From assembly GCF_017348835.2 (NCBI RefSeq), contig NZ_CP071375.1: DNA of 64,000 bases. One strand, 5' to 3'. Shown in pieces: positions 1 to 42,032 of the stretch; position 1 is the stretch's first letter, and every line of letters begins with the position of its first letter. Both the position numbers and the translations under genes were made by a program. Under the pieces are notes generated by a model. The model did not search any database and had not been told where the DNA came from. It was given only the letters and a program-made list of their open reading frames with translations. The DNA comes from Escherichia coli (GTDB lineage Bacteria > Pseudomonadota > Gammaproteobacteria > Enterobacterales > Enterobacteriaceae).

Positions 1-952
1 TCAGTGTCAAAACCCGGTTTAAAGTAGCGCTACTCATTGGCGCATCGGAATCGTACCGCGAAGGAAGGATAAAATCAGAGCTACCGGCAAAGGTTTTGAG
101 AGCAATCATAATATCCATTGCCTGTCTGGAAAGAAAAACCAAATGTGGATTACGTCGTTTCATCCTTTCCTTTGGTATCGTCCATAATGCCTCACTAAAA
201 TTGATCTCGTTCCAGGTTGCGTTAGTAAGCTCACTTTTACGTACCATCGTTAACAGCAAAAGTTTAACCGCTGCTCTGATTGATGGCGTCGTTCCTACCC
301 GTTCCATGTACCGATACATCAGACCAATTTCAATTGGCGTCAATGCCCTGTCTCGAGGCTCAAATTTCGCTATGCTTGCAGGCCGTACCAGATCAGCAGG
401 ATTCTCCACCTTCTGACCGCGCTCAATAGCCCAGCGATAGACTTGCAATACAATCTCTCTGGCGTGTACAGCTGTCGCTGGTGCCCCTCTCTCGACAATG
501 TTATCGGTTAATGCGCGTAAGTCTTCATGTGTAATCTCACTAAGTTTCTGCTGGGCAAATTTTGACTTCAACTCCCTTTGATATACCGAACGCCGCATAT
601 CACGCGTCGATTCAGCCATTTGATAACCGCGTAACCATTTCTCAGTCCACGCACCAAAAGTCTCCGCATCTTTAATACGCGCTTTATCTCTGGCTTTTTC
701 CCTCGCAGGCGATATTCCACTGGCAACCATTTTTTTGGCTTCATTGAGCCGTTCACGCGCTTCTGCAAGCGTGATCCCTCCAACACCATAGCGGCCAAAA
801 ATAACAGTCTCCTGTCTTCCGTTTATTGAATAGTTATAACGAAATGAAATAGTTCCAGCCGGAGTGACCGCAACATACAGACCATCACGGTCATTAACTT
901 TATAGAGTTTCTCCTTCGGCTTAAGGTGACGCAGCCTGGTGTCAGTCAACAT
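1..952 (-). CDS. P4-type tyrosine integrase, 5' part only (start codon at 950-952; 3' end lies beyond base 1)
   Basis: Hand translation of the minus strand from 952 gives an open frame with no stop to base 1: MLTDTRLRHLKPKEKLYKVNDRDGLYVAVTPAGTISFRYNY..., matching the N-terminal arm-binding region of P4-like integrases. Not in the ORF track because the frame runs off the window. Confidence 0.75.
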   Translation of the reverse strand, partial: MLTDTRLRHLKPKEKLYKVNDRDGLYVAVTPAGTISFRYNYSINGRQETVIFGRYGVGGITLAEARERLNEAKKMVASGISPAREKARDKARIKDAETFGAWTEKWLRGYQMAESTRDMRRSVYQRELKSKFAQQKLSEITHEDLRALTDNIVERGAPATAVHAREIVLQVYRWAIERGQKVENPADLVRPASIAKFEPRDRALTPIEIGLMYRYMERVGTTPSIRAAVKLLLLTMVRKSELTNATWNEINFSEALWTIPKERMKRRNPHLVFLSRQAMDIMIALKTFAGSSDFILPSRYDSDAPMSSATLNRVLTL

Positions 953-1175
953 GGTTTATTGTTTTCCTTTATCAAAAATACCATGTTGTAAAAAATTCAG
1001 AAAAGTTGTTTAACTATCTGTTTTTAATTGAGTTATAAAAAAAATACCATAACTCAACCGAAATTTATCACATGGTACTTTTTCAAACCTGAATTCGAAA
1101 CCAGAGAGTACCATCAAAAATTCCATTGAAAAAACCGTGCTTCCCGTTGCTAACAGCTGCCAGAAAGTGCCAGAC

Positions 1176-1208
1176 ACAAAAACAAAAAAGCCCGCAGTTA
1201 CGCGGGCT
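1176..1208 (-). terminator. Rho-independent terminator of guaA
   Basis: GC hairpin agcccgcagttacgcgggct followed on the minus strand by a U-run, about 50 nt after the guaA stop. Confidence 0.7.
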
Positions 1209-1256
1209 TAGAGGTACTTTACTGCTTTTACGTGCAGGCTGTTGCCAGACGTTAAA

Positions 1257-2834
1257 TCATTCCCACTCAATGGTAGCCGGCGGCTTGCCGCTGATGTCAT
1301 ACACCACGCGGGAAATACCGTTCACTTCATTGATAATGCGGTTGGAAACGCGACCGAGGAAATCGTACGGCAGATGCGCCCAGTGTGCGGTCATAAAGTC
1401 GATGGTTTCGACAGCACGCAGAGAGACAACCCAGTCATACTTACGACCATCGCCCATTACGCCAACGGAACGTACTGGCAGGAAGACGGTGAACGCCTGG
1501 CTGACTTTGTCGTACAGGTCCGCTTTACGCAGTTCTTCAATGAAGATGGCGTCAGCACGGCGCAGCAGGTCACAATACTCTTTCTTCACTTCACCCAGAA
1601 CACGAACGCCGAGGCCTGGTCCCGGGAACGGGTGACGGTACAGCATGTCGTACGGTAGACCCAGCTCCAGACCAATCTTACGCACTTCGTCTTTGAACAG
1701 CTCTTTCAGCGGTTCAACCAGGCCCATCTTCATCTCTTTCGGCAGGCCGCCCACGTTGTGGTGAGATTTGATGACGTGTGCTTTACCGGTTGCAGACGCC
1801 GCAGATTCGATAACGTCAGGGTAGATGGTGCCCTGTGCCAGCCACTTCACGTCTTCCAGTTTCAGCGCTTCTTCATCGAATACTTCAACGAAAACGCGAC
1901 CGATGATTTTACGTTTTGCTTCCGGATCGTTTTCGCCAGCCAGCGCTGACAGGAAGCGATCTTCTGCCGGAACGTGAACAATGTTCAGACCAAAGTGATC
2001 GCCAAACATATCCAGAACCTGCTCTGCTTCGTTGAGACGCAGCAGGCCGTTGTCGACGAATACGCAAGTCAGGTTTTTACCGATAGCGCGGTGCAGCAGC
2101 ATTGCGGTTACGGAGGAATCCACACCACCAGAGAGGCCGAGGATGACTTTATCGTCGCCTACCTGCTCGCGGATGCGAGCTACAGCATCGTCGATAATTT
2201 TCGCTGGCGTCCACAGGGCTTCACACTGGCAGATATCACGCACAAAACGCTCCAGCATGCGCATACCCTGGCGGGTGTGAGTCACTTCCGGGTGGAACTG
2301 TACGCCATAGAAGCGTTTTTCTTCGTTAGCCATAATGGCAAACGGGCAGCTTTCGGTGCTGGCTACGGTGACGAAGTCGGACGGGATAGCGGTAACTTTA
2401 TCGCCGTGGCTCATCCAGACATCGAGCAGCGGTTTACCGTCTGCGGTCAGCGCATCTTCGATACCGCGAACCAGTGCGCTGTCGTTTACGACTTCAACCT
2501 GCGCGTAGCCAAATTCACGTTCGTTAGAGGCTTCAACGTGACCGCCCAACTGCATTGCCATGGTCTGCATGCCATAGCAAACGCCGAATACCGGTACGCC
2601 TGCTTCAAAGACATACTGCGGCGCACGCGGGCTGTTTTCTTCAGTAGTACTTTCCGGGCCGCCGGAAAGAATAATGCCGCTTGGATTGAAGTCACGAATT
2701 TGTGCTTCTGTCACATCCCACGCCCACAGTTCGCAGTAAACACCCAGCTCACGCACGCGGCGCGCAACCAGTTGAGTGTACTGAGAACCGAAGTCCAGAA
2801 TGAGGATGCGATGCTTATGAATGTTTTCCGTCAT
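1257..2834 (-). CDS. guaA: GMP synthase (glutamine-hydrolysing)
   Basis: 525-aa [25 protein letters not shown]... to ...PPATIEWE; glutamine amidotransferase plus ATP-pyrophosphatase layout. Confidence 0.97.
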
Positions 2835-4500: not shown

Positions 4501-5907
<1,407 letters not shown>

Positions 5908-5975: not shown

Positions 5976-8900
5976 TCACTGGAAACAAGTAACCAGACCA
6001 GGTTTATTGGCTAACGTGATACAACAATCCTCTGTGCCAGTGCTCTCGTCCATCCCACACCGTTGAGAGGACAAGTAAGGGAAACTTGGCGAAGCTGGCC
6101 ATCCCAGCGAATTAAACACAGTATACAATGTCTCTAACTCATTGTATGTCGGTGCATTTTCTATATTTCCACACTGCTTCGAGATATCCCATTTGCTGGC
6201 ATCAGTAATATGCGCAGAAGCCCAGTTTTCGTAGTTAATAATCGGTGAGGATACGGGATTGGCCCCGGACGGTAATTCAGTTGTCAGTATCGGTCGATGT
6301 AATGTTTTTCCATTCACCACTGCCGTGTCTGCCATATGCCCCCAGAAGTGAGCAGAAGATACATTTGGGCTGGTCAATACGGTGAAAATAGTGTCCATCA
6401 TTGCAGTCACTGTTGGGTATTTATCCAGCGTTACCGTCAGCGGCATTTTATAACCCGGCGTATTGTCCTGACGAACAGTAAAGTTTGCCGTGCCGTCTGC
6501 CCCCGTCACGCCACTGATCTCGTTCCCACTAACCGCCAATAGGGTAGCCGCCCCCGATGATGGCTGGATGGTAATATCATCCATAGCCGCCACATCGCCA
6601 TATAGCGTCGCCCCACTATTACGCGGAGAGGCATCACCACGTCGCAGAGTAAACGCCACATTTGGCACAGGTTTCCCGGCGCTGTCTTTCACCGTCACGG
6701 TGACTGGCATTGCCTCGCCCTTCTTCACTTTCGCCGCCTGAGCGGTGGAGTCAAATGCCGTTGACGTCAGGGTGACGGTAGAAACCGTTGAGTGAGGGTG
6801 CACCAGGCACGCCTGGAAGGCGCGGCTTTTAGATACAGTCACAAGTTGACCTGTGTTGAAGTCAAATGATTCACAAGAATTCGCGCCCGCAGGACAATCT
6901 GCATTTGTCCACCACACATAGCTATTCTGTTTCACCGGCCAGCCAATCTCATTGACGATAGAGCCATTCGGATAGCGGTTGTATAAAGATTGAAGCTCAT
7001 CCAATGATGGATATCGTGCGCTTTCACAAGGGATAAGCTCCGGCAAATATCGCTGGGTAATATATGGCGCAGGCCAGCTTTCATTATTTATATTCACTTT
7101 AGTGAGCGAATAACCGCCACCGCTGGTTGCCCCCATTTCGGCCCACAGTTTCATCCGCTCAAACTGCGTTCCGTCTGCTGAGCTTACCGTTTCTGGCATA
7201 TGTCCCCAGAAGTTGGCTTTTGGCGTATCCGGGCTTGTTACTACGGTATACATCAGGTCGAGATCTGACTTTACCCCTGTTTCACGTGCAAGCGTCGCCG
7301 TAAACGGTGTTACCAGTCCCCAGGTATTATCCTGCGTAGCGGTTAACGTGATGATGCCATTACCGTCCGTAACCCCGTTCCAACTGGCGTTATCATCTGC
7401 AAATTTGTAATTGGCTTGCGCAACCGGCGTCAGGAACTGTAGCAGCAGATCATCTGCTGTCGAGCTTGTGAAATCACTCGGCGTGCGCACTTGTGCTGTC
7501 GCACGCGACAACCTGACGCTTTCATAGGCGGCAGGTCTGCCCGCATCATCCGTGACCTTGATAGTTAACGGTATTGATACGCCCTTCTTCGCCCATGCAG
7601 TCGGACGGTTGTCGTTGATGCCTGTTTTGTCCGCATTCAGCAACGTAGACGTCAACTCAATCGTCGTTGCCTCAGTGTGCGGGTCAACCAGGCAGAGCAT
7701 TAAATTGCCCGCCGTCGATGTTGTACTTTCGTTGCGGATAGCACCGCTCATCAGATCAAGCACCTGGTTATACCATGTTGAACTTGAAACAGTTTGGTCG
7801 TACGCCCACCAGTAATTACCTGCGTTAAGAGGCAGCCCCAAATCAGTTTCCAGCGCACCATTTGGATGGTCGTTGTAAAGCCCCATTAGCTCACTACTGA
7901 AGGGTTGATAAGGCGAAGTGCAGCCTGAGATCGAACTGTTCGCTTTGTTGGTTGCATCTGGTCGCGCCCAGTCTTCATTGTTGATATTAAAGGACGCAGT
8001 CCCGGACAACTCGGCCTTCAACTGTGGTCGCCTGAACGCGACGCCCGCGCTGCTGGTAAAGGTTTCCGGCATATGGCCCCAATAGTTAGCCTTCGGCGTA
8101 TCCGGGCTGGTGATCACTGTGAAAATCGCACTTAAAGATTGTGAAGCAATCGAACCATCGTCCAGTTTCGCCAACAACGGAATACGAACGCCATATCCTT
8201 TATGGAACTGATATACCGTCAACGTCGCCGTTCCGTCAGGCCCGGTAACACCATAAAAATCATCGCCCTCATTAATGATTGGCGTTTGATGATTGGATGA
8301 ATCCGTGATGTAAATTAATTTCGACTGGTAATCTGAACTTACTACATTCTGACGGCTAAGCGTCGCACCATGTTCCAGCAAGAAGGGTACATTACCCAGC
8401 AGATTTCCCTGCGCGTCGCGCGTTGTGACCTTAATGGTGATGAAATCATGATCAACTTCATAATTGGTTTTTGCTTTAACCCCCTGATTACCATCATAAA
8501 CCTGCGCTTGTTCAGAGGTTAACTCAATTGTGGCGACCTTCGGGTTAGCCGTTGTCTGGCAGGTTAAATACCCCCCTTTTGACTCCAGTACACTGCTGGT
8601 GCCATTACTCAGTTGCACACCAAGGTAATTACGATTACTTACGCTGGCACCATCGGCGGTGCTGGTGTCATAGACTTTTAATACTGGCCAGCCGTCTACA
8701 GCATGACCGCCCCAGCTTGTCGATAACGTGGTTAATGCATCTTTGGTCGGGATATTATCTGCGCCACAACCGTTATTTTTCGCATTCTTACTTGCCTGCG
8801 CTTCAGTAAACAGCGCCCAAATTTCGTTATCCTCTTCCGGGCTTTTACGTCCATTGCCGGGAGAACCACTCAGTTCTGAAAACAGGATCGGTCGCTTAAA

Positions 8901-37806: not shown

Positions 37807-38652
37807 ATGTCCACGACATGGTTTGTAGGAGCCGACTGGCTCGCCGAACATATTGATGACCCGGAAATTCAGATTATCGATGCCCGCATGGCGTCGCCTG
37901 GACAGGAAGATCGTAACGTTGCTCAGGAGTATCTGAATGGACATATTCCCGGCGCAGTGTTTTTTGATATCGAAGCGCTTTCTGATCACACTTCCCCGCT
38001 TCCGCACATGCTGCCGCGCCCGGAAACGTTCGCCGTGGCGATGCGTGAATTAGGCGTTAACCAGGATAAGCACCTGATTGTCTATGACGAAGGTAATCTT
38101 TTCTCAGCCCCACGAGCATGGTGGATGCTGCGCACCTTTGGTGTAGAGAAAGTGTCGATTCTGGGGGGTGGACTTGCAGGCTGGCAGCGCGATGATCTTT
38201 TGTTAGAAGAAGGTGCAGTAGAGCTGCCGGAAGGAGAGTTTAACGCCGCGTTTAATCCTGAAGCAGTGGTGAAAGTAACCGATGTGTTATTGGCAAGCCA
38301 TGAAAATACGGCGCAAATTATTGATGCCCGCCCGGCTGCACGTTTTAACGCAGAAGTTGATGAACCTCGCCCAGGTTTACGTCGCGGACATATTCCCGGT
38401 GCATTGAACGTTCCGTGGACGGAACTGGTGCGCGAAGGCGAACTAAAAACGACCGATGAACTGGATGCGATATTTTTTGGTCGCGGCGTCAGCTACGACA
38501 AACCAATTATCGTCAGCTGCGGCTCTGGTGTAACGGCAGCCGTGGTTTTGTTAGCACTCGCGACGCTGGATGTGCCAAACGTGAAACTGTACGACGGCGC
38601 ATGGAGTGAATGGGGCGCGCGGGCAGATTTACCGGTTGAGCCAGTGAAATAA
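37807..38652 (+). CDS. sseA: 3-mercaptopyruvate sulfurtransferase (tandem rhodanese domains)
   Basis: ORF track 37648..38652; start trimmed to MSTTWFVGADWLAEH (281 aa) with GGAG Shine-Dalgarno; active-site CGSGVTA. Confidence 0.9.
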   Translation: MSTTWFVGADWLAEHIDDPEIQIIDARMASPGQEDRNVAQEYLNGHIPGAVFFDIEALSDHTSPLPHMLPRPETFAVAMRELGVNQDKHLIVYDEGNLFSAPRAWWMLRTFGVEKVSILGGGLAGWQRDDLLLEEGAVELPEGEFNAAFNPEAVVKVTDVLLASHENTAQIIDARPAARFNAEVDEPRPGLRRGHIPGALNVPWTELVREGELKTTDELDAIFFGRGVSYDKPIIVSCGSGVTAAVVLLALATLDVPNVKLYDGAWSEWGARADLPVEPVK

Positions 38653-38667
38653 GTATTTTACAGGCAA

Positions 38668-38698
38668 TAAAAAACCGCCGAATTTGGCGGTTTTTTAT
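38668..38698 (+). terminator. Bidirectional rho-independent terminator after sseA
   Basis: aaaaaaccgccgaatttggcggtttttt: hairpin flanked by an A-run and a T-run, usable from either strand. Confidence 0.7.
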
Positions 38699-38994
38699 TG
38701 CTGGTCTGGTTCGCGGCCTTTCCAGCAGGTTGACTTGTGTTGCCGGAGCAACGCAGGCACCCCACAGTGTTGAAATACTCTCTTTTATGCCTGGCTGTGT
38801 CAAGATAATAAACAGAGTAATTATTCAAACATGAGAGTATTATTCTTAATGGCCCTTTTCGCCGTCTCGCAAACGGGCGATGGCTTTAGGAAAGGATGTT
38901 CCATGACCGTAAATACAGGCACCCCACAGTGCTTGCTATCGCGGCAATATCGCCAGTGGTGCTGTCGTGATGCGGTCTTCGCATGGACCGCACA

Positions 38995-39120
38995 ATGAAG
39001 ATACGGTGCTTCTGTATCGTACTTATTGTTTCTGGTGCGCTGTTAACCGAGGTAAATAATAACCTGAGTCTCTCCGGCGACAATTTACTGGTGGTTAACA
39101 ACCTTCAGAGCAGCAAGTAA
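38995..39120 (+). CDS. Small hydrophobic protein, candidate type I toxin (RyfA/TimP-like), copy 1
   Basis: 41-codon ORF MKIRCFCIVLIVSGALLTEVNNNLSLSGDNLLVVNNLQSSK followed directly by a terminator; an in-frame ATG 12 nt upstream is an alternative start. Confidence 0.45.
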   Translation: MKIRCFCIVLIVSGALLTEVNNNLSLSGDNLLVVNNLQSSK

Positions 39121-39152
39121 GCCCGAATGCCGCCCTTTGGGGCGGCATATTT
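39121..39152 (+). terminator. Rho-independent terminator of toxin transcript 1
   Basis: gcccgaatgccgccctttggggcggcat followed by attttag. Confidence 0.5.
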
Positions 39153-39156
39153 TAGA

Positions 39157-39237
39157 TTATCCGATTCTGTTTAAAGTCACGCAAAAAACCACCCCAGCGA
39201 CGTTCATAGAATGGCGCAATATGTTCGATATTAAAAT
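39157..39237 (-). pseudogene. Duplicated 3' fragment of sseB (about 26 codons)
   Basis: Minus-strand translation ...IEHIAPFYERRWGGFLRDFKQNRI* matches the SseB C-terminus; homology to 39830..39907 stops abruptly at 39237. Confidence 0.55.
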
Positions 39238-39351
39238 GACCTGGCTTATTAGTCCGAATTCAGACAAATATAAACAAATCCCGCTCAATATTAAAAATAC
39301 TAACCGGTAAAAGATATTACTTAAACATGTAAATTCACTTTCTTTAAGCAA

Positions 39352-39907
39352 CAAAAAACCGCCAAAATCAGGCGGTTATTTGTTGCCGGTTTGGTTCGCG
39401 GCCTCTCCAGCAGGTTGTATTACCGTAGTAATGCAAGCGCGTCTCAGCGGAGACAATACTCGCCAGTAACTCTCTTTTTGTCAAGTAAAAGAGAGTTATT
39501 ATTGTTCTGTTAGTGTATTATCCACTGCGGCCCTTTCCGCCGTCTCGCAAGCGGGCGCTGGCTTAAGGAAAGGATGTTCCGCGACCGTTAGAGCAAGCGC
39601 GTCTCAGCGCTTGCTATCGCGGCAATATCGCCAGTGGTGCTGTCGTGATGCGGTCTTCGCATGGACCGCACAATGAAGATACGGTGCTTCTGTATCGTAC
39701 TTATTGTTTCTGGTGCGCTGTTAACCGAGGTAAATAATAACCTGAGTCTCTCCGGAAACAATTTACTGGTGGTTAACAACCTTCAGAACAGCAGGTAAGC
39801 CCGAATGCCGCCCTTTGGGGCGGCATATTTTAGATTATCCGGTTCTGTTTAAAGTCACGCAAAAAACCACCCCAGCGACGTTCATAGAACGGCGCAATAT
39901 GTTCGGT
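39352..39907. repeat. Tandem repeat unit 2 of the ryfA-type small-toxin locus (approx. 556 bp)
   Basis: Begins with a terminator-like hairpin aaaaaaccgccaaaatcaggcgg and runs into the real sseB 3' end. Confidence 0.7.
39673..39798 (+). CDS. Small hydrophobic protein, candidate type I toxin (RyfA/TimP-like), copy 2
   Basis: 41-codon ORF MKIRCFCIVLIVSGALLTEVNNNLSLSGNNLLVVNNLQNSR; three substitutions relative to copy 1. Confidence 0.45.
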   Translation: MKIRCFCIVLIVSGALLTEVNNNLSLSGNNLLVVNNLQNSR

Positions 39908-40606
39908 AATAAAGTGGCTAATTCCTTTTTCCCCTTTTTTCACCTGACAAATATCGATTGGTTCATCGCCAGGTAATGTATCGGTCGCTACACTTCCCGC
40001 CACCTGAATAATTTCTTCGATATCACCATCGGCTTCAATGCCAATAAGTAAATTAGGCTGTGCCTCTTCATTCTCTTTAATTGAACAAATAAAAGCACGC
40101 TTCACAGGCTTAATGGTTTTAAATAAGGTGGTGAGTGAATCAATCATTTGTGCTGGCGGCTCTGCGACTTCCGATAATATCAGCGATTCACCGCCTTCCA
40201 GGATTTCCTGGCTGCTCAGCGGATTTCCCTCTTCACCAATCAACAAACTGATTTCACGCGGCATAAATTCTTTACCGGTCGGCAGTTTGGCATTAAGGAA
40301 GAGCGTTTCGCCAAGGGTCATCTCAAACAATGTGCGAACGGGCATTACGACAAATGCCTGTTCGTCTTCAACCGCCTGTTGAAGTGCTTCTAACGAGGTA
40401 AAAAAAGGAATGACGCTGGTGCCGTCTTCTTTTTCCCAGTGCTGTAAATCAAGCGCGCCATCTTCAACCACAGCCTCGCCCTGCGCCGCCGTACCAGGCA
40501 CCCAGACGGTGGATTCCAGTAGAGTACGGAAAAAGGCCGGGCGGTGCGCCGGTTCGGTTGCTGCTTTTTCCAGCAGGTCTTCAAGTTCATTTTTTGTTTC
40601 GGACAT
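39830..40606 (-). CDS. sseB: Enhanced serine sensitivity protein SseB
   Basis: ORF track 39830..40615; start trimmed to MSETKNELEDLLEKAATEPAHRPAFF (258 aa). Confidence 0.88.
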   Translation of the reverse strand: MSETKNELEDLLEKAATEPAHRPAFFRTLLESTVWVPGTAAQGEAVVEDGALDLQHWEKEDGTSVIPFFTSLEALQQAVEDEQAFVVMPVRTLFEMTLGETLFLNAKLPTGKEFMPREISLLIGEEGNPLSSQEILEGGESLILSEVAEPPAQMIDSLTTLFKTIKPVKRAFICSIKENEEAQPNLLIGIEADGDIEEIIQVAGSVATDTLPGDEPIDICQVKKGEKGISHFITEHIAPFYERRWGGFLRDFKQNRII

Positions 40607-40640: not shown

Positions 40641-40745
<105 letters not shown>

Positions 40746-40748
40746 AGT

Positions 40749-42032
40749 TTACGCCGTTAACAGATTAGCAATCGTGCGCACACCAAGTCCCGTAGCACCC
40801 GCAGACCACTGTTCAACCGGCGCTTTACGGTAAGTCGCCGAGCAGTCGATATGCAGCCAGCCTTGCTGATAGTTCTCAACAAAGTGCGACAGGAAGCCCG
40901 CCGCCGTGCTCGCGCCTGCCGGATACGCCGCGCTTCCGGTATTGTTCAGTTCGGCAAAGTTAGACGGCAGCTGGCTGCGGTGGAACTCCGCCAGCGGCAG
41001 ACGCCAGAATGGTTCGTTCTCTTGTGAGGCACTCGCCAGCAAACGACCGGCAAGCGCATCGTCAAAACTGAACAACGCGTGATAATCATTACCCAGCGCA
41101 GTTTTCGCCGCCCCGGTGAGGGTCGCCGCATCAATGATCAGTTCCGGTTTCTGCGCACTGGCATCAATCAGACCATCGGCCAGCACCAGACGCCCTTCGG
41201 CATCAGTGTTCATCACTTCAACTTTTTTACCGTTGCGATAGGTGATGATATCGCCCAGCTTGAACGCATTGCCGCTAATCAGGTTATCCGCACAGCAGAG
41301 GAACAGCTTCACGCGCTTGTTCAGTCCGCGCGTAATGGCAAATGCCAGCGCCCCGGTAACCGTTGCCGCGCCGCCCATGTCCGACTTCATCGAGTCCATA
41401 AACGCAGTCTGTTTGATGCTGTAGCCGCCGGAGTCAAAAGTGATACCTTTACCTACCAGGCACGCGTACACTGGCGCTTCTTTATCGCCAGTTGGATTGT
41501 AATCCAGCGCCAGCAATACCGGAGAACGTTCTGAACCGCGTCCGACGGTGTGCAGCCCCATATAACCTTGCTCACGCAGATCTTCGCCTTTGGTGATCCG
41601 ATAAGTCACACGATCGCCTGCGACGTTGCTGATCAGATCAACAGCACGCTGTGCCAGTTGCGATGGCCCCAGCTCTTCCGCCGGTGCGTTGATGGTGTCA
41701 CGCACCCAGTCGATGATCATCAGGCGGTTATCCAGTTCCTGGCGCTGGGCATCGTCCAGATCCGGCCACTCCACTTTACGCGTGCCTTTCGGGGCTTTGT
41801 AACCTTGCCAGAATGCCCAGCAGCGATCCGCATCCCAGCCTTCACCGCTTAACTGAACATGCTTGATGCCCAGGCCGTCAATCTTGCGCGCCGCACGCTG
41901 GATCAGCCCCAGATCGTCTGCCCCGTTCAAATGCAGGGTAATGCCGTCATTATTAATGCTGTAAGTTGCTTTTTCTCCCCAGCGCGCGTCGGCAGGTTGG
42001 GTAGAGAGGGTAATCTTCATCGCTTCTGTCAT
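40749..42032 (-). CDS. pepB: Peptidase B (M17 leucyl aminopeptidase family)
   Basis: ORF track 40749..42119; start trimmed to [22 protein letters not shown] (427 aa). Confidence 0.93.

Follow-up and report, generated by a model that had tools for sequence, protein, structure and literature searches.

The sseA-sseB interval of an Escherichia coli strain carries two tandem timPR (ryfA/ryfB) units with predicted partner-specific antitoxin RNAs

In an E. coli strain, the interval between sseA and sseB holds two similar units, each with a 41-codon ORF and each with a short sequence of its own that occurs twice. Why do both occurrences differ between the copies and agree within each copy? We analyzed a 64-kb stretch of DNA that contains this interval (the window). 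It is very probable, at a level that we put at about 0.9, that the interval consists of two timPR (ryfA/ryfB) modules in tandem, both of them type I toxin-antitoxin systems, and the sRNA TimR of each is predicted to act on its own toxin gene only. The features of the locus are collected in Table 1.

Table 1. Features of the sseA-sseB interval (positions in the window)
Feature	Position	Strand	Basis and details
sseA (3-mercaptopyruvate sulfurtransferase), left flank	37807..38652	+	RefSeq annotation of strain PE164, 100% identical
Bidirectional terminator hairpin with A-run and T-run	38664..38701	both	Inverted repeat, 19-nt arms, 95% complementary
timR1 (ryfB1-type), type A, predicted, ~100-105 nt	38664..38769	-	Alignment with Salmonella TimR; 16-mer
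Putative sigma-70 promoter of timR1	38775..38803	-	Sequence reading: TTGACA (38803-38798), N17, GAGTAT (38780-38775)
ryfA1/timP1 mRNA (5' UTR with SL1-SL4, ORF, terminator)	38849..39153	+	Rfam RF00126, 317 bits
SL2 of timP1, predicted TimR binding site	38915..38936	+	Rfam consensus structure positions 68-87; holds the 38916-38931 16-mer
timP1, 41 aa, TimP family (small toxic inner-membrane protein)	38995..39120	+	NF040796, 80.3 bits; WP_000701881.1 in PE164
Intrinsic terminator of timP1	39127..39148	+	Terminator scan; 9 pairs, 7 G-C
sseB 3' fragment, duplicated pseudogene	39152..39238	-	RefSeq pseudogene in PE164; aligns with 39830-39905
AT-rich spacer, 112 nt	39228..39339		Unit alignment
timR2 (ryfB2-type), type C, predicted, ~100 nt	39347..39449	-	Alignment with Salmonella TimR; minus-strand terminator; 17-mer
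Putative promoter of timR2	39456..39484	-	Sequence reading: TTGACA (39484-39479), N17, GAGTAT (39461-39456)
ryfA2/timP2 mRNA	39527..39831	+	Rfam RF00126, 311.3 bits
SL2 of timP2	39592..39614	+	Predicted hairpin, -17.3 kcal/mol; holds the 39593-39609 17-mer
timP2, 41-aa TimP toxin homologue	39673..39798	+	NF040796, 77.7 bits; WP_001491247.1
Intrinsic terminator of timP2	39805..39826	+	Terminator scan
sseB, right flank	39830..40606	-	RefSeq annotation of PE164

The first-pass annotation of the window had described two head-to-tail units of about 560 bp at this site. The order stands and the size does not: the segment common to both copies is about 570 bp long, and the start-to-start distance between them is 678-685 nt. 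In unit 1 the shared segment is followed by an AT-rich spacer, which is found between the units only, and the duplicated 3' fragment of sseB marks where the duplicated segment ends on the right. The Rfam family "IS128" (RF00125) matches positions 39185-39395 with 227 bits and takes in the spacer; a literature search on IS128 together with ryfA found a single paper, in which IS128 is named once. RefSeq annotates timP twice in strain PE164. From hairpin SL2 on, the copies are about 99% identical. As had been claimed, the ORFs and terminators are nearly the same: TimP1 and TimP2 differ at three residues, all of them conservative (D/N, S/N, K/R), and the terminators are identical. The further claim that the copies differ in two short blocks only was wrong, and by eye in the unit alignment the 5' part as a whole, with the sRNA body, the divergent promoters and SL1-SL2, is only about two-thirds identical. 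Since the whole 5' part is divergent, the informative point is that the two sites are identical within each copy, and not that the sites alone have changed.

Using repeat finding and a DNA search, we found CAGGCACCCCACAGTG twice on the + strand of copy 1 (38754-38769 and 38916-38931) and the 17-nt GCAAGCGCGTCTCAGCG twice in copy 2 (39433-39449 and 39593-39609). The earlier description had the first site of copy 1 right and the second one nucleotide too early (38915-38930); for copy 2 its sequence was one nucleotide too short. From the end of the downstream 16-mer to the toxin ATG there are 64 nt, close to the 65 nt estimated before. Further sites of either sequence were absent from both strands of the 64-kb window when up to two mismatches were allowed. 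The shuffle expectation is 0.02 and 0.01 matches for the two motifs, and two matches occurred in none of 100 shuffles.

Both ORFs score well above the curated cut-off of 45 bits of the NCBIfam family NF040796 (toxic_TimP), and both mRNAs match RF00126 over model positions 1-296 of 296, the gathering score being 80. This confirms the ryfA/TimP-like identity suggested by the first reading. Comparison with the homologous oligo for the timP transcript of Salmonella places the start of the timP1 transcript at about 38851 (GGCCC). Homology also suggests that TimP1 and TimP2 are toxic in this E. coli strain.

It had also been proposed that an sRNA transcribed divergently across the upstream repeat would be complementary to the toxin 5' UTR, and the alignment supports this proposal. 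Both predicted minus-strand RNAs can be aligned with Salmonella TimR over the full length, at a mean column identity of 78%. A scan of genome contigs with GCGGTCNNNGCANNGACCGCAC, a G+C-rich hairpin motif, was too loose (Enterobacterales accounted for 15 of the 120 loci among the matches listed) and gave no Salmonella or Shigella locus among the matches listed; therefore, the Salmonella TimR sequence was rebuilt from the published in-vitro-transcription oligos EHO-1419 and EHO-1420. In the alignment, the 5' end of TimR coincides with the beginning of the complementary stretch (~38767 in unit 1). Contiguous complementarity to SL2 of timP1 extends over 16 of 16 bases at the 5' end of timR1 (38769 down to 38754), and that to SL2 of timP2 over 17 of 17 bases at the 5' end of timR2 (39449 down to 39433).

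At the other end, the predicted RNAs stop at the hairpins with which the units begin (38664-38701 and 39357-39377), in agreement with the suggestion that these could terminate the sRNA. The first hairpin serves two ends, that of sseA on the + strand and that of TimR1 on the - strand, and aligns with the Salmonella TimR terminator. The timR2 terminator stem reads from 39377 to 39357, and its hairpin was scored on both strands by the terminator scan. A putative promoter with the layout TTGACA-N17-GAGTAT is common to both units; in unit 1 the start would fall 7-8 nt downstream of it, at about 38767-38768. The consensus promoter scan did not list this promoter because the -10 hexamer GAGTAT is weak. 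No family in Rfam matches timR. Matches of timR to AgrB (timR1, 30.7 bits against a threshold of 40), RNAI, the rimP leader and others were sub-threshold, lay over the terminator hairpin and were regarded as noise. Each predicted timR start (~38767 and ~39447) is separated by about 80 nt from the timP start downstream of it (~38851 and ~39529), and the sRNA would be transcribed away from timP. A timR/ryfB transcript of about 100 nt has been seen in Shigella (PMC5333039), in Salmonella (PMC7667032) and, by Northern blot, in E. coli CFT073 (PMC13188913, supplement), and by homology with these relatives both timR genes are probably transcribed here.

The two sites switch together not only between our copies, as had been noticed, but across 15 loci of Escherichia, Citrobacter, Superficieibacter, Yersinia, Rahnella and Erwinia, and the offset of the upstream repeat is constant in the compared loci (about 150-162 nt). 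Closely spaced direct repeats can arise by local duplication or slippage, and the repeats might be functionless by-products of such events with no sRNA upstream. We consider this extremely improbable: the repeat sequence varies by species, yet in the loci compared the two sites always agree and their offset is fixed. The upstream region also shows full-length homology to an sRNA that has been mapped by experiment and has a known transcript, and it carries its own terminator. In some species, the DNA between the two repeats has been cleanly deleted, which suggests a simple route by which timPR modules are lost.

The toxin family, the mRNA, the sRNA homology and the complementarity to SL2 are all present, which at the level of sequence supports the reading of both units as type I toxin-antitoxin modules. 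On this reading, each unit would have a + strand mRNA of about 300 nt (ryfA/timP) that encodes the 41-aa membrane toxin TimP, and a divergent TimR/RyfB of about 100 nt, which would start in a back-to-back promoter region and end at the hairpin that opens the unit. TimR would pair through its first 16-17 nt with the 5' stem and the loop of SL2 of its own timP, about 64 nt before the start codon. In Salmonella, SL2 is the TimR site and timP is controlled by a pseudoknot mechanism (Eleftheraki & Holmqvist 2024, PMC11228461; Eleftheraki 2026, PMC13000454), and repression of translation by TimR has been demonstrated with compensatory mutants (Andresen 2020, PMC7667032). In that system, timP is translated only with an SL1-SL3 pseudoknot and a long-range contact by which the Shine-Dalgarno sequence is released from SL4. 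On binding, TimR opens SL2 and prevents the pseudoknot, and thus timP translation is blocked with the ribosome binding site untouched; the units here would work in the Salmonella manner.

Candidate sites for the seven-base-pair pseudoknot, which joins upper SL1 to the SL3 loop, were located by complementarity, not from a published figure. In copy 2 they form 7 of 7 pairs, one of them G-U (CGCUGGC / GCCAGUG); in copy 1 (CGAUGGC) 6 of 7 pairs form, with an A-G mismatch caused by the A at 38880. Covariation of the candidate sites is seen in Yersinia (CAUCGGU / GCCGAUG) and in Rahnella (CACCGGU / ACCGGUG). Because the C-to-A change at 38880 breaks one of the seven candidate pairs, timP1 may be translated poorly whatever TimR1 does.

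The ORF could also be irrelevant in E. coli: RyfA1 and RyfA2 might be mainly trans-acting sRNAs that affect ompC, stress tolerance and fimbriae, with RyfB/TimR as an anti-sRNA by which the RyfA level is lowered. Indeed, Fris 2017 (PMC5333039) observed a RyfA1-dependent loss of ompC mRNA and detected no protein from ryfA1, and in UPEC and APEC studies phenotypes accompanied deletion of ryfA and not of timR. The APEC study (PMC13188913), in which timR deletion had little effect, states that the coding of a toxic peptide by E. coli ryfA is not yet settled. Nevertheless, the ORF belongs to a conserved protein family, both copies are well over its cut-off, and the differences between TimP1 and TimP2 are conservative. 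In Salmonella, TimP has been detected and is toxic and under the translational control of TimR (PMC7667032). The elements of the 5' UTR that serve translation (SL1-SL4 and the candidate pseudoknot sites) are also conserved with covariation. Thus, we regard a mainly trans-acting RyfA with an irrelevant ORF as rather unlikely. A regulatory role of the RyfA RNA and a TimP-coding role are not mutually exclusive, and the reading that we prefer is still that of two timPR modules.

Does each TimR act on its own timP only? The variable region of the recognition sites is CACCC in copy 1 (38758-38762 and 38920-38924; type A) and CGCGT in copy 2 (39438-39442 and 39598-39602; type C). RNAduplex gave -37.2 kcal/mol for TimR1-timP1 and -37.3 kcal/mol for TimR2-timP2, and -19.3 and -13.3 kcal/mol for the crossed duplexes; these energies refer to the SL2 segment alone, and runs on the whole UTR gave artefactual long interior loops. 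By sequence reading, 4 of 16 positions are mismatched in the crossed pairs and the longest continuous helix is 4-5 bp. Across the 15 loci of six genera, the mean duplex energy is -43.6 kcal/mol for cognate and -29.6 kcal/mol for non-cognate pairs. Since the units carry different SL2/TimR sequences, each antitoxin is predicted to control its own toxin only, and the type A and type C modules of this strain are predicted not to cross-react.

Experiments on relatives point in the same direction. In the Shigella pair, inferred to be A+B, RyfB1 lowers RyfA1 and not RyfA2, as judged by RNA levels and not by translation, and a 5-nt difference sufficed to restrict RyfB1 to RyfA1 (PMC5333039). In Salmonella, single-site mutations of the pairing region abolished rescue (PMC7667032). 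It is improbable that either TimR represses either timP and that the duplication provides dosage or redundancy only, even if both units have the TimR body and the stem bases on either side of the variable region in common. With G-U pairs, the non-cognate duplex here still reaches -19 kcal/mol, and type C TimR with type B SL2 gives -22 to -26 kcal/mol.

Type B, with the variable region TGTTT, is found in other E. coli genomes; Fris 2017 (PMC5333039) lists four variable regions, TGTTT, CGCGT, CCCCC and CACCC. We typed SL2 and timR in about 20 sampled loci. K-12, JSWP021, CE0011b and G6/7 have a single timP with type B SL2. The order in K-12-type loci is timR_B, a stub of the deleted timP, the spacer, timR_C and the single timP, and the deletion junction is present in 1839 of 5426 complete E. 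coli genomes (about a third). The type B timP in this architecture is predicted to pair with the distal timR_B at -32.7 kcal/mol vs -22.5 kcal/mol with the adjacent timR_C, so the distal timR_B is its predicted antitoxin and the adjacent timR_C would be an orphan. An exact-word search for an upstream repeat adjoining K-12 timP found nothing; the cognate site is distal, and one of its positions gives a G-U pair. In strain 64.1, K-12-type architecture is combined with type C SL2, and the predicted roles of the two timR genes are reversed.

Tandem loci were counted from the extra copies of a timP probe: in 5425 genomes it matched at 5602 places, an excess of about 177. Of the tandem loci that we sampled from complete E. 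coli genomes, most are A+B and A+C is rarer; only PE164 and F2_81 among them are identical to the window. The A+C tandem of the window would then be a rare and, by the model, orthogonal combination. In the text of the timPR/ryfA literature consulted, we found no description of this arrangement. We tentatively suggest, at somewhat less than even odds, that the sseA-sseB site reshuffles at least three TimR/timP alleles and that each timP keeps a matching timR in the locus, though not always an adjacent one.

The literature of 2017-2024 already describes the tandem timPR locus, its divergent sRNA, the variable region with its partner specificity and the way in which timP is repressed. The value of the present analysis is that of a check: a real type I architecture was correctly rebuilt from raw sequence alone. 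In K-12, the E. coli reference of the structural papers, the timR that adjoins timP is not the predicted partner. This bears on how timR deletions in strains of K-12-type architecture are designed and read. For the APEC/UPEC work, deletion of a non-cognate timR was ruled out, as the primers show that CH138 carries a simple single type B unit.

The closest known locus is that of Shigella dysenteriae, where Fris 2017 (PMC5333039) described tandem ryfA1/ryfA2 at the same chromosomal site, each with an upstream divergent ryfB1 or ryfB2 of about 100 nt, and a 16-18-nt complementarity that overlaps the "variable region" of ryfA. The Shigella pair is CACCC + TGTTT, whereas the window is A+C, and that study regards RyfA as a non-coding sRNA, whereas the copies in the window carry TimP ORFs. 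Salmonella enterica timPR shares with our units a homologous toxin (NF040796), mRNA (RF00126) and sRNA, and pairing of the TimR 5' end with SL2, which lies over 60 nt ahead of the ribosome binding site; the candidate SL1-SL3 pseudoknot sites may be conserved as well. It is described as one module, in contrast to the two tandem modules with different recognition sequences found here, and copy 1 differs from it by the mismatch in the candidate pseudoknot (38880).

The zor-orz system is also present as two tandem sibling copies. A classical cis-antisense arrangement of the hok/sok kind was rejected for our locus: the predicted timR does not overlap timP, and the pairing would go through the 16-17-nt direct repeat. 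In zorO-orzO/zorP-orzP, tisB-istR1, shoB-ohsC and dinQ-agrB, as here, the antitoxin sRNA gene adjoins the toxin gene and does not lie opposite to it, and about 18-20 nt pair in the toxin 5' UTR (PMC7667032, PMC5333039). Their toxins and RNAs are unrelated to timPR in sequence, and the sub-threshold AgrB match of timR1 is no evidence of relatedness to dinQ-agrB. These systems need mRNA processing for translation, whereas timP is controlled by a structural switch.

The interval between sseA and sseB contains two head-to-tail units, each a timP/TimR (ryfA/ryfB) module. A repeat search of the window places their starts 678-685 nt apart and gives a repeated segment of about 570 bp. Each unit carries its own motif twice, as a 16-mer in unit 1 and a 17-mer in unit 2. 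With up to two mismatches allowed, neither motif occurs again in the 64-kb window, and for either motif two matches were reached in none of 100 dinucleotide-preserving shuffles. The repeat positions in the first-pass annotation stand, except for the second site of unit 1, which was one base off. The same annotation stated that the copies differ in two short blocks. The unit alignment (38655-39227 versus 39340-39905) refutes this. It breaks sharply at SL2, the second stem-loop of the timP 5' UTR. From SL2 onward there is a handful of differences in about 300 nt (about 99% identity between units). Upstream, over the sRNA body, the promoters and SL1-SL2, identity drops to about two-thirds as judged by eye, and thus the differences are not confined to two short blocks. 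The informative point is the identity of both sites inside each copy. The break at SL2 suggests either that gene conversion homogenised the toxin end of the units and left the divergence of the recognition and promoter region in place, or that the tandem was assembled from two diverged alleles.

Features of the sseA-sseB interval (window coordinates) and of the compared loci (coordinates within each locus)
Feature	Position	Strand	Basis or remark
sseA	37807-38652	+	left flank
timR1 terminator, bidirectional, common to sseA	38664-38701		hairpin
Unit 1 repeat CAGGCACCCCACAGTG	38754-38769; 38916-38931
ryfA1/timP1 mRNA, full-length RF00126	38849-39153		Rfam, 317 bits
sseB pseudogene fragment, between copies	39152-39238		RefSeq annotation
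Spacer, 112 nt	39228-39339		3' of unit 1
timR2 terminator	39377-39357	-	hairpin
Unit 2 repeat GCAAGCGCGTCTCAGCG	39433-39449; 39593-39609
ryfA2/timP2 mRNA, full-length RF00126	39527-39831		Rfam, 311 bits
sseB	39830-40606	-	right flank
Putative timR promoters, both units		-	TTGACA, 17-nt spacer, GAGTAT; read from sequence
Inter-repeat deletion, Citrobacter amalonaticus (L081)	8050-8190
Inter-repeat deletion, Yersinia similis (L072)	~4540-4660
Inter-repeat deletion, Y. aleksiciae (L117)
K-12-type chimera, K-12 MG1655 (L002)	708-1300		sseA, timR_B, first 15 nt of timP then deletion, spacer, timR_C, single timP
Further K-12-type chimeras (L004, L133, L134, L135)			same order

The Rfam gathering score for RF00126 is 80. 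The region is 100% identical between the window and E. coli PE164 and F2_81, in which RefSeq annotates timP twice. According to the Rfam consensus structure, the downstream repeat of each unit makes up the 5' stem plus the loop of SL2 in the 5' UTR. Both reading frames (38983-39120 and 39661-39798, +) open four codons further upstream in the ORF list, where an ATG within the SL4 hairpin gives 45 codons (MDRT-MKIRCF...); the 41-codon version used by RefSeq and by the TimP family model begins at the downstream ATG.

A divergent minus-strand sRNA over the upstream repeat had been proposed, with the hairpins as terminators. We reconstructed Salmonella TimR from the in-vitro-transcription oligos EHO-1419 and EHO-1420 (PMC7667032, Table S2) and aligned it with the reverse complements of 38664-38770 and 39347-39450, a Citrobacter homologue and the K-12 distal homologue. 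Both candidates align with it over the full length (mean column identity of the whole alignment set, 78%), which supports the proposal. The Salmonella 5' end maps to ~38767 and ~39447, the start of the complementary stretch, with a putative promoter 7-8 nt upstream in both units. Both predicted sRNA genes end at the hairpins named earlier. The Rfam search of the window assigned timR to no family above threshold. The timR1 body and terminator (38666-38747, -) gave a sub-threshold AgrB match (30.7 versus 40 bits, E = 0.02), probably driven by the terminator; AgrB is the antitoxin sRNA of dinQ.

For the SL2 segment, predicted duplex energies are -37.2 kcal/mol for TimR1 with timP1 and -37.3 for TimR2 with timP2, versus -19.3 and -13.3 kcal/mol for the crossed pairs, which are mismatched at 4 of 16 positions. 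SL2 varies in sequence among 15 loci from Escherichia, Citrobacter, Superficieibacter, Yersinia, Rahnella and Erwinia, yet it has a matching direct repeat some 150-162 nt upstream; mean energies are -43.6 kcal/mol for cognate and -29.6 for non-cognate duplexes. The claim that the two sites switch together therefore holds in six genera. The SL2/TimR specificity classes include types A, B and C (variable regions CACCC, TGTTT and CGCGT), and the A and C modules of the window are predicted to be orthogonal.

In Salmonella, TimP is an inner-membrane toxin that depends on Sec. There, TimR represses timP translation by pairing with the 5' UTR at a point more than 60 nt upstream from the ribosome binding site, and rescue is abolished when either RNA carries a disrupting mutation (PMC7667032). 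The TimR site is located in SL2, an SL1-SL3 pseudoknot is required for timP translation, and when TimR binds, SL2 is opened and the pseudoknot destabilised (PMC11228461). An extra long-range contact releases the Shine-Dalgarno sequence sequestered in SL4 (PMC13000454). By homology with the Salmonella system, E. coli TimP would be toxic, and TimR in the window would likewise open SL2, destabilise the pseudoknot and so repress timP translation. In copy 2 the likely pseudoknot, located by complementarity, pairs CGCUGGC with GCCAGUG. Both candidate pseudoknot sites co-vary in Yersinia and Rahnella. Copy 1 has A for C at 38880 (GCGATGGC in place of GCGCTGGC). The equivalent base is C in 12 of 14 E. 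coli-group loci and A only here and in copy 1 of another tandem locus, L126. Since 38880 lies within the SL1 stretch complementary to the SL3 loop (GCCAGTG), the A breaks one of seven predicted pseudoknot pairs.

A timP probe found 5602 places, spread over 5425 of the 5426 complete E. coli genomes. The surplus of about 177 copies puts the share of genomes with two or more timP genes at roughly 3%. Most sampled tandem loci combine type A with type B (L126-L132); A+C, the combination in the window, is less common. K-12 shares a chimeric arrangement with roughly one in three complete E. coli genomes, and its deletion junction is found uninterrupted in 1839 of the 5426. In K-12, JSWP021, CE0011b and G6/7, the SL2 of timP is type B; its match is the distal timR_B (-32.7 kcal/mol), and the neighbouring timR_C (-22.5) does not match. 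Strain 64.1 shares this architecture, and its timP carries a type C SL2 that matches the adjacent timR_C (-37.5 kcal/mol). Thus, a matching timR was present in the locus of every timP examined, though not always next to it.

The species representatives of C. amalonaticus, Y. similis and Y. aleksiciae lack the stretch that separates the two direct repeats; alignment confirmed a clean deletion for C. amalonaticus only. The timR body is joined straight to the SL2 3' half, the Rfam ryfA score falls to 180-209 bits, and both promoters and SL1 are thereby lost. The pattern resembles a repeat-mediated loss of the entire module. An Rfam IS128 (RF00125) match at 39185-39395 (+, 227 bits) covers the duplicated 3' fragment of sseB, the spacer between the units and the terminator of timR2, and the family may therefore reflect the duplicated structure or its scar, not a separate sRNA; a literature search on IS128 yielded nothing informative. 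Between sseB and pepB lies a REP-like element (40710-40754, +) with a sub-threshold naRNA4 match (40.3 bits, gathering score 59.5).

The repeat observation is thus confirmed, and the interpretation as two type I toxin-antitoxin modules, each with its own recognition sequence, is supported by homology, complementarity and published relatives. The finding is already known, because the arrangement, the variable regions and a timR transcript have been published. Shigella dysenteriae carries tandem ryfA1 and ryfA2 (Fris et al. 2017, PMC5333039), with divergent ryfB1 and ryfB2 of ~100 nt upstream of each ryfA and ~60% identical to each other. RyfB complementarity covers 16-18 nt and overlaps a five-nucleotide 'variable region', and RyfB1 overproduction reduces RyfA1, not RyfA2 (PMC5333039). 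In E. coli CFT073 a ~100-nt timR transcript has been detected, and qRT-PCR confirmed expression in APEC CH138 (PMC13188913). Judged against the texts of the papers, the K-12 arrangement might be the sole new item. Four variable regions are listed for Escherichia and Shigella, TGTTT, CGCGT, CCCCC and CACCC (PMC5333039), and copy 1 (CACCC) and copy 2 (CGCGT) of the window both carry regions from this list.
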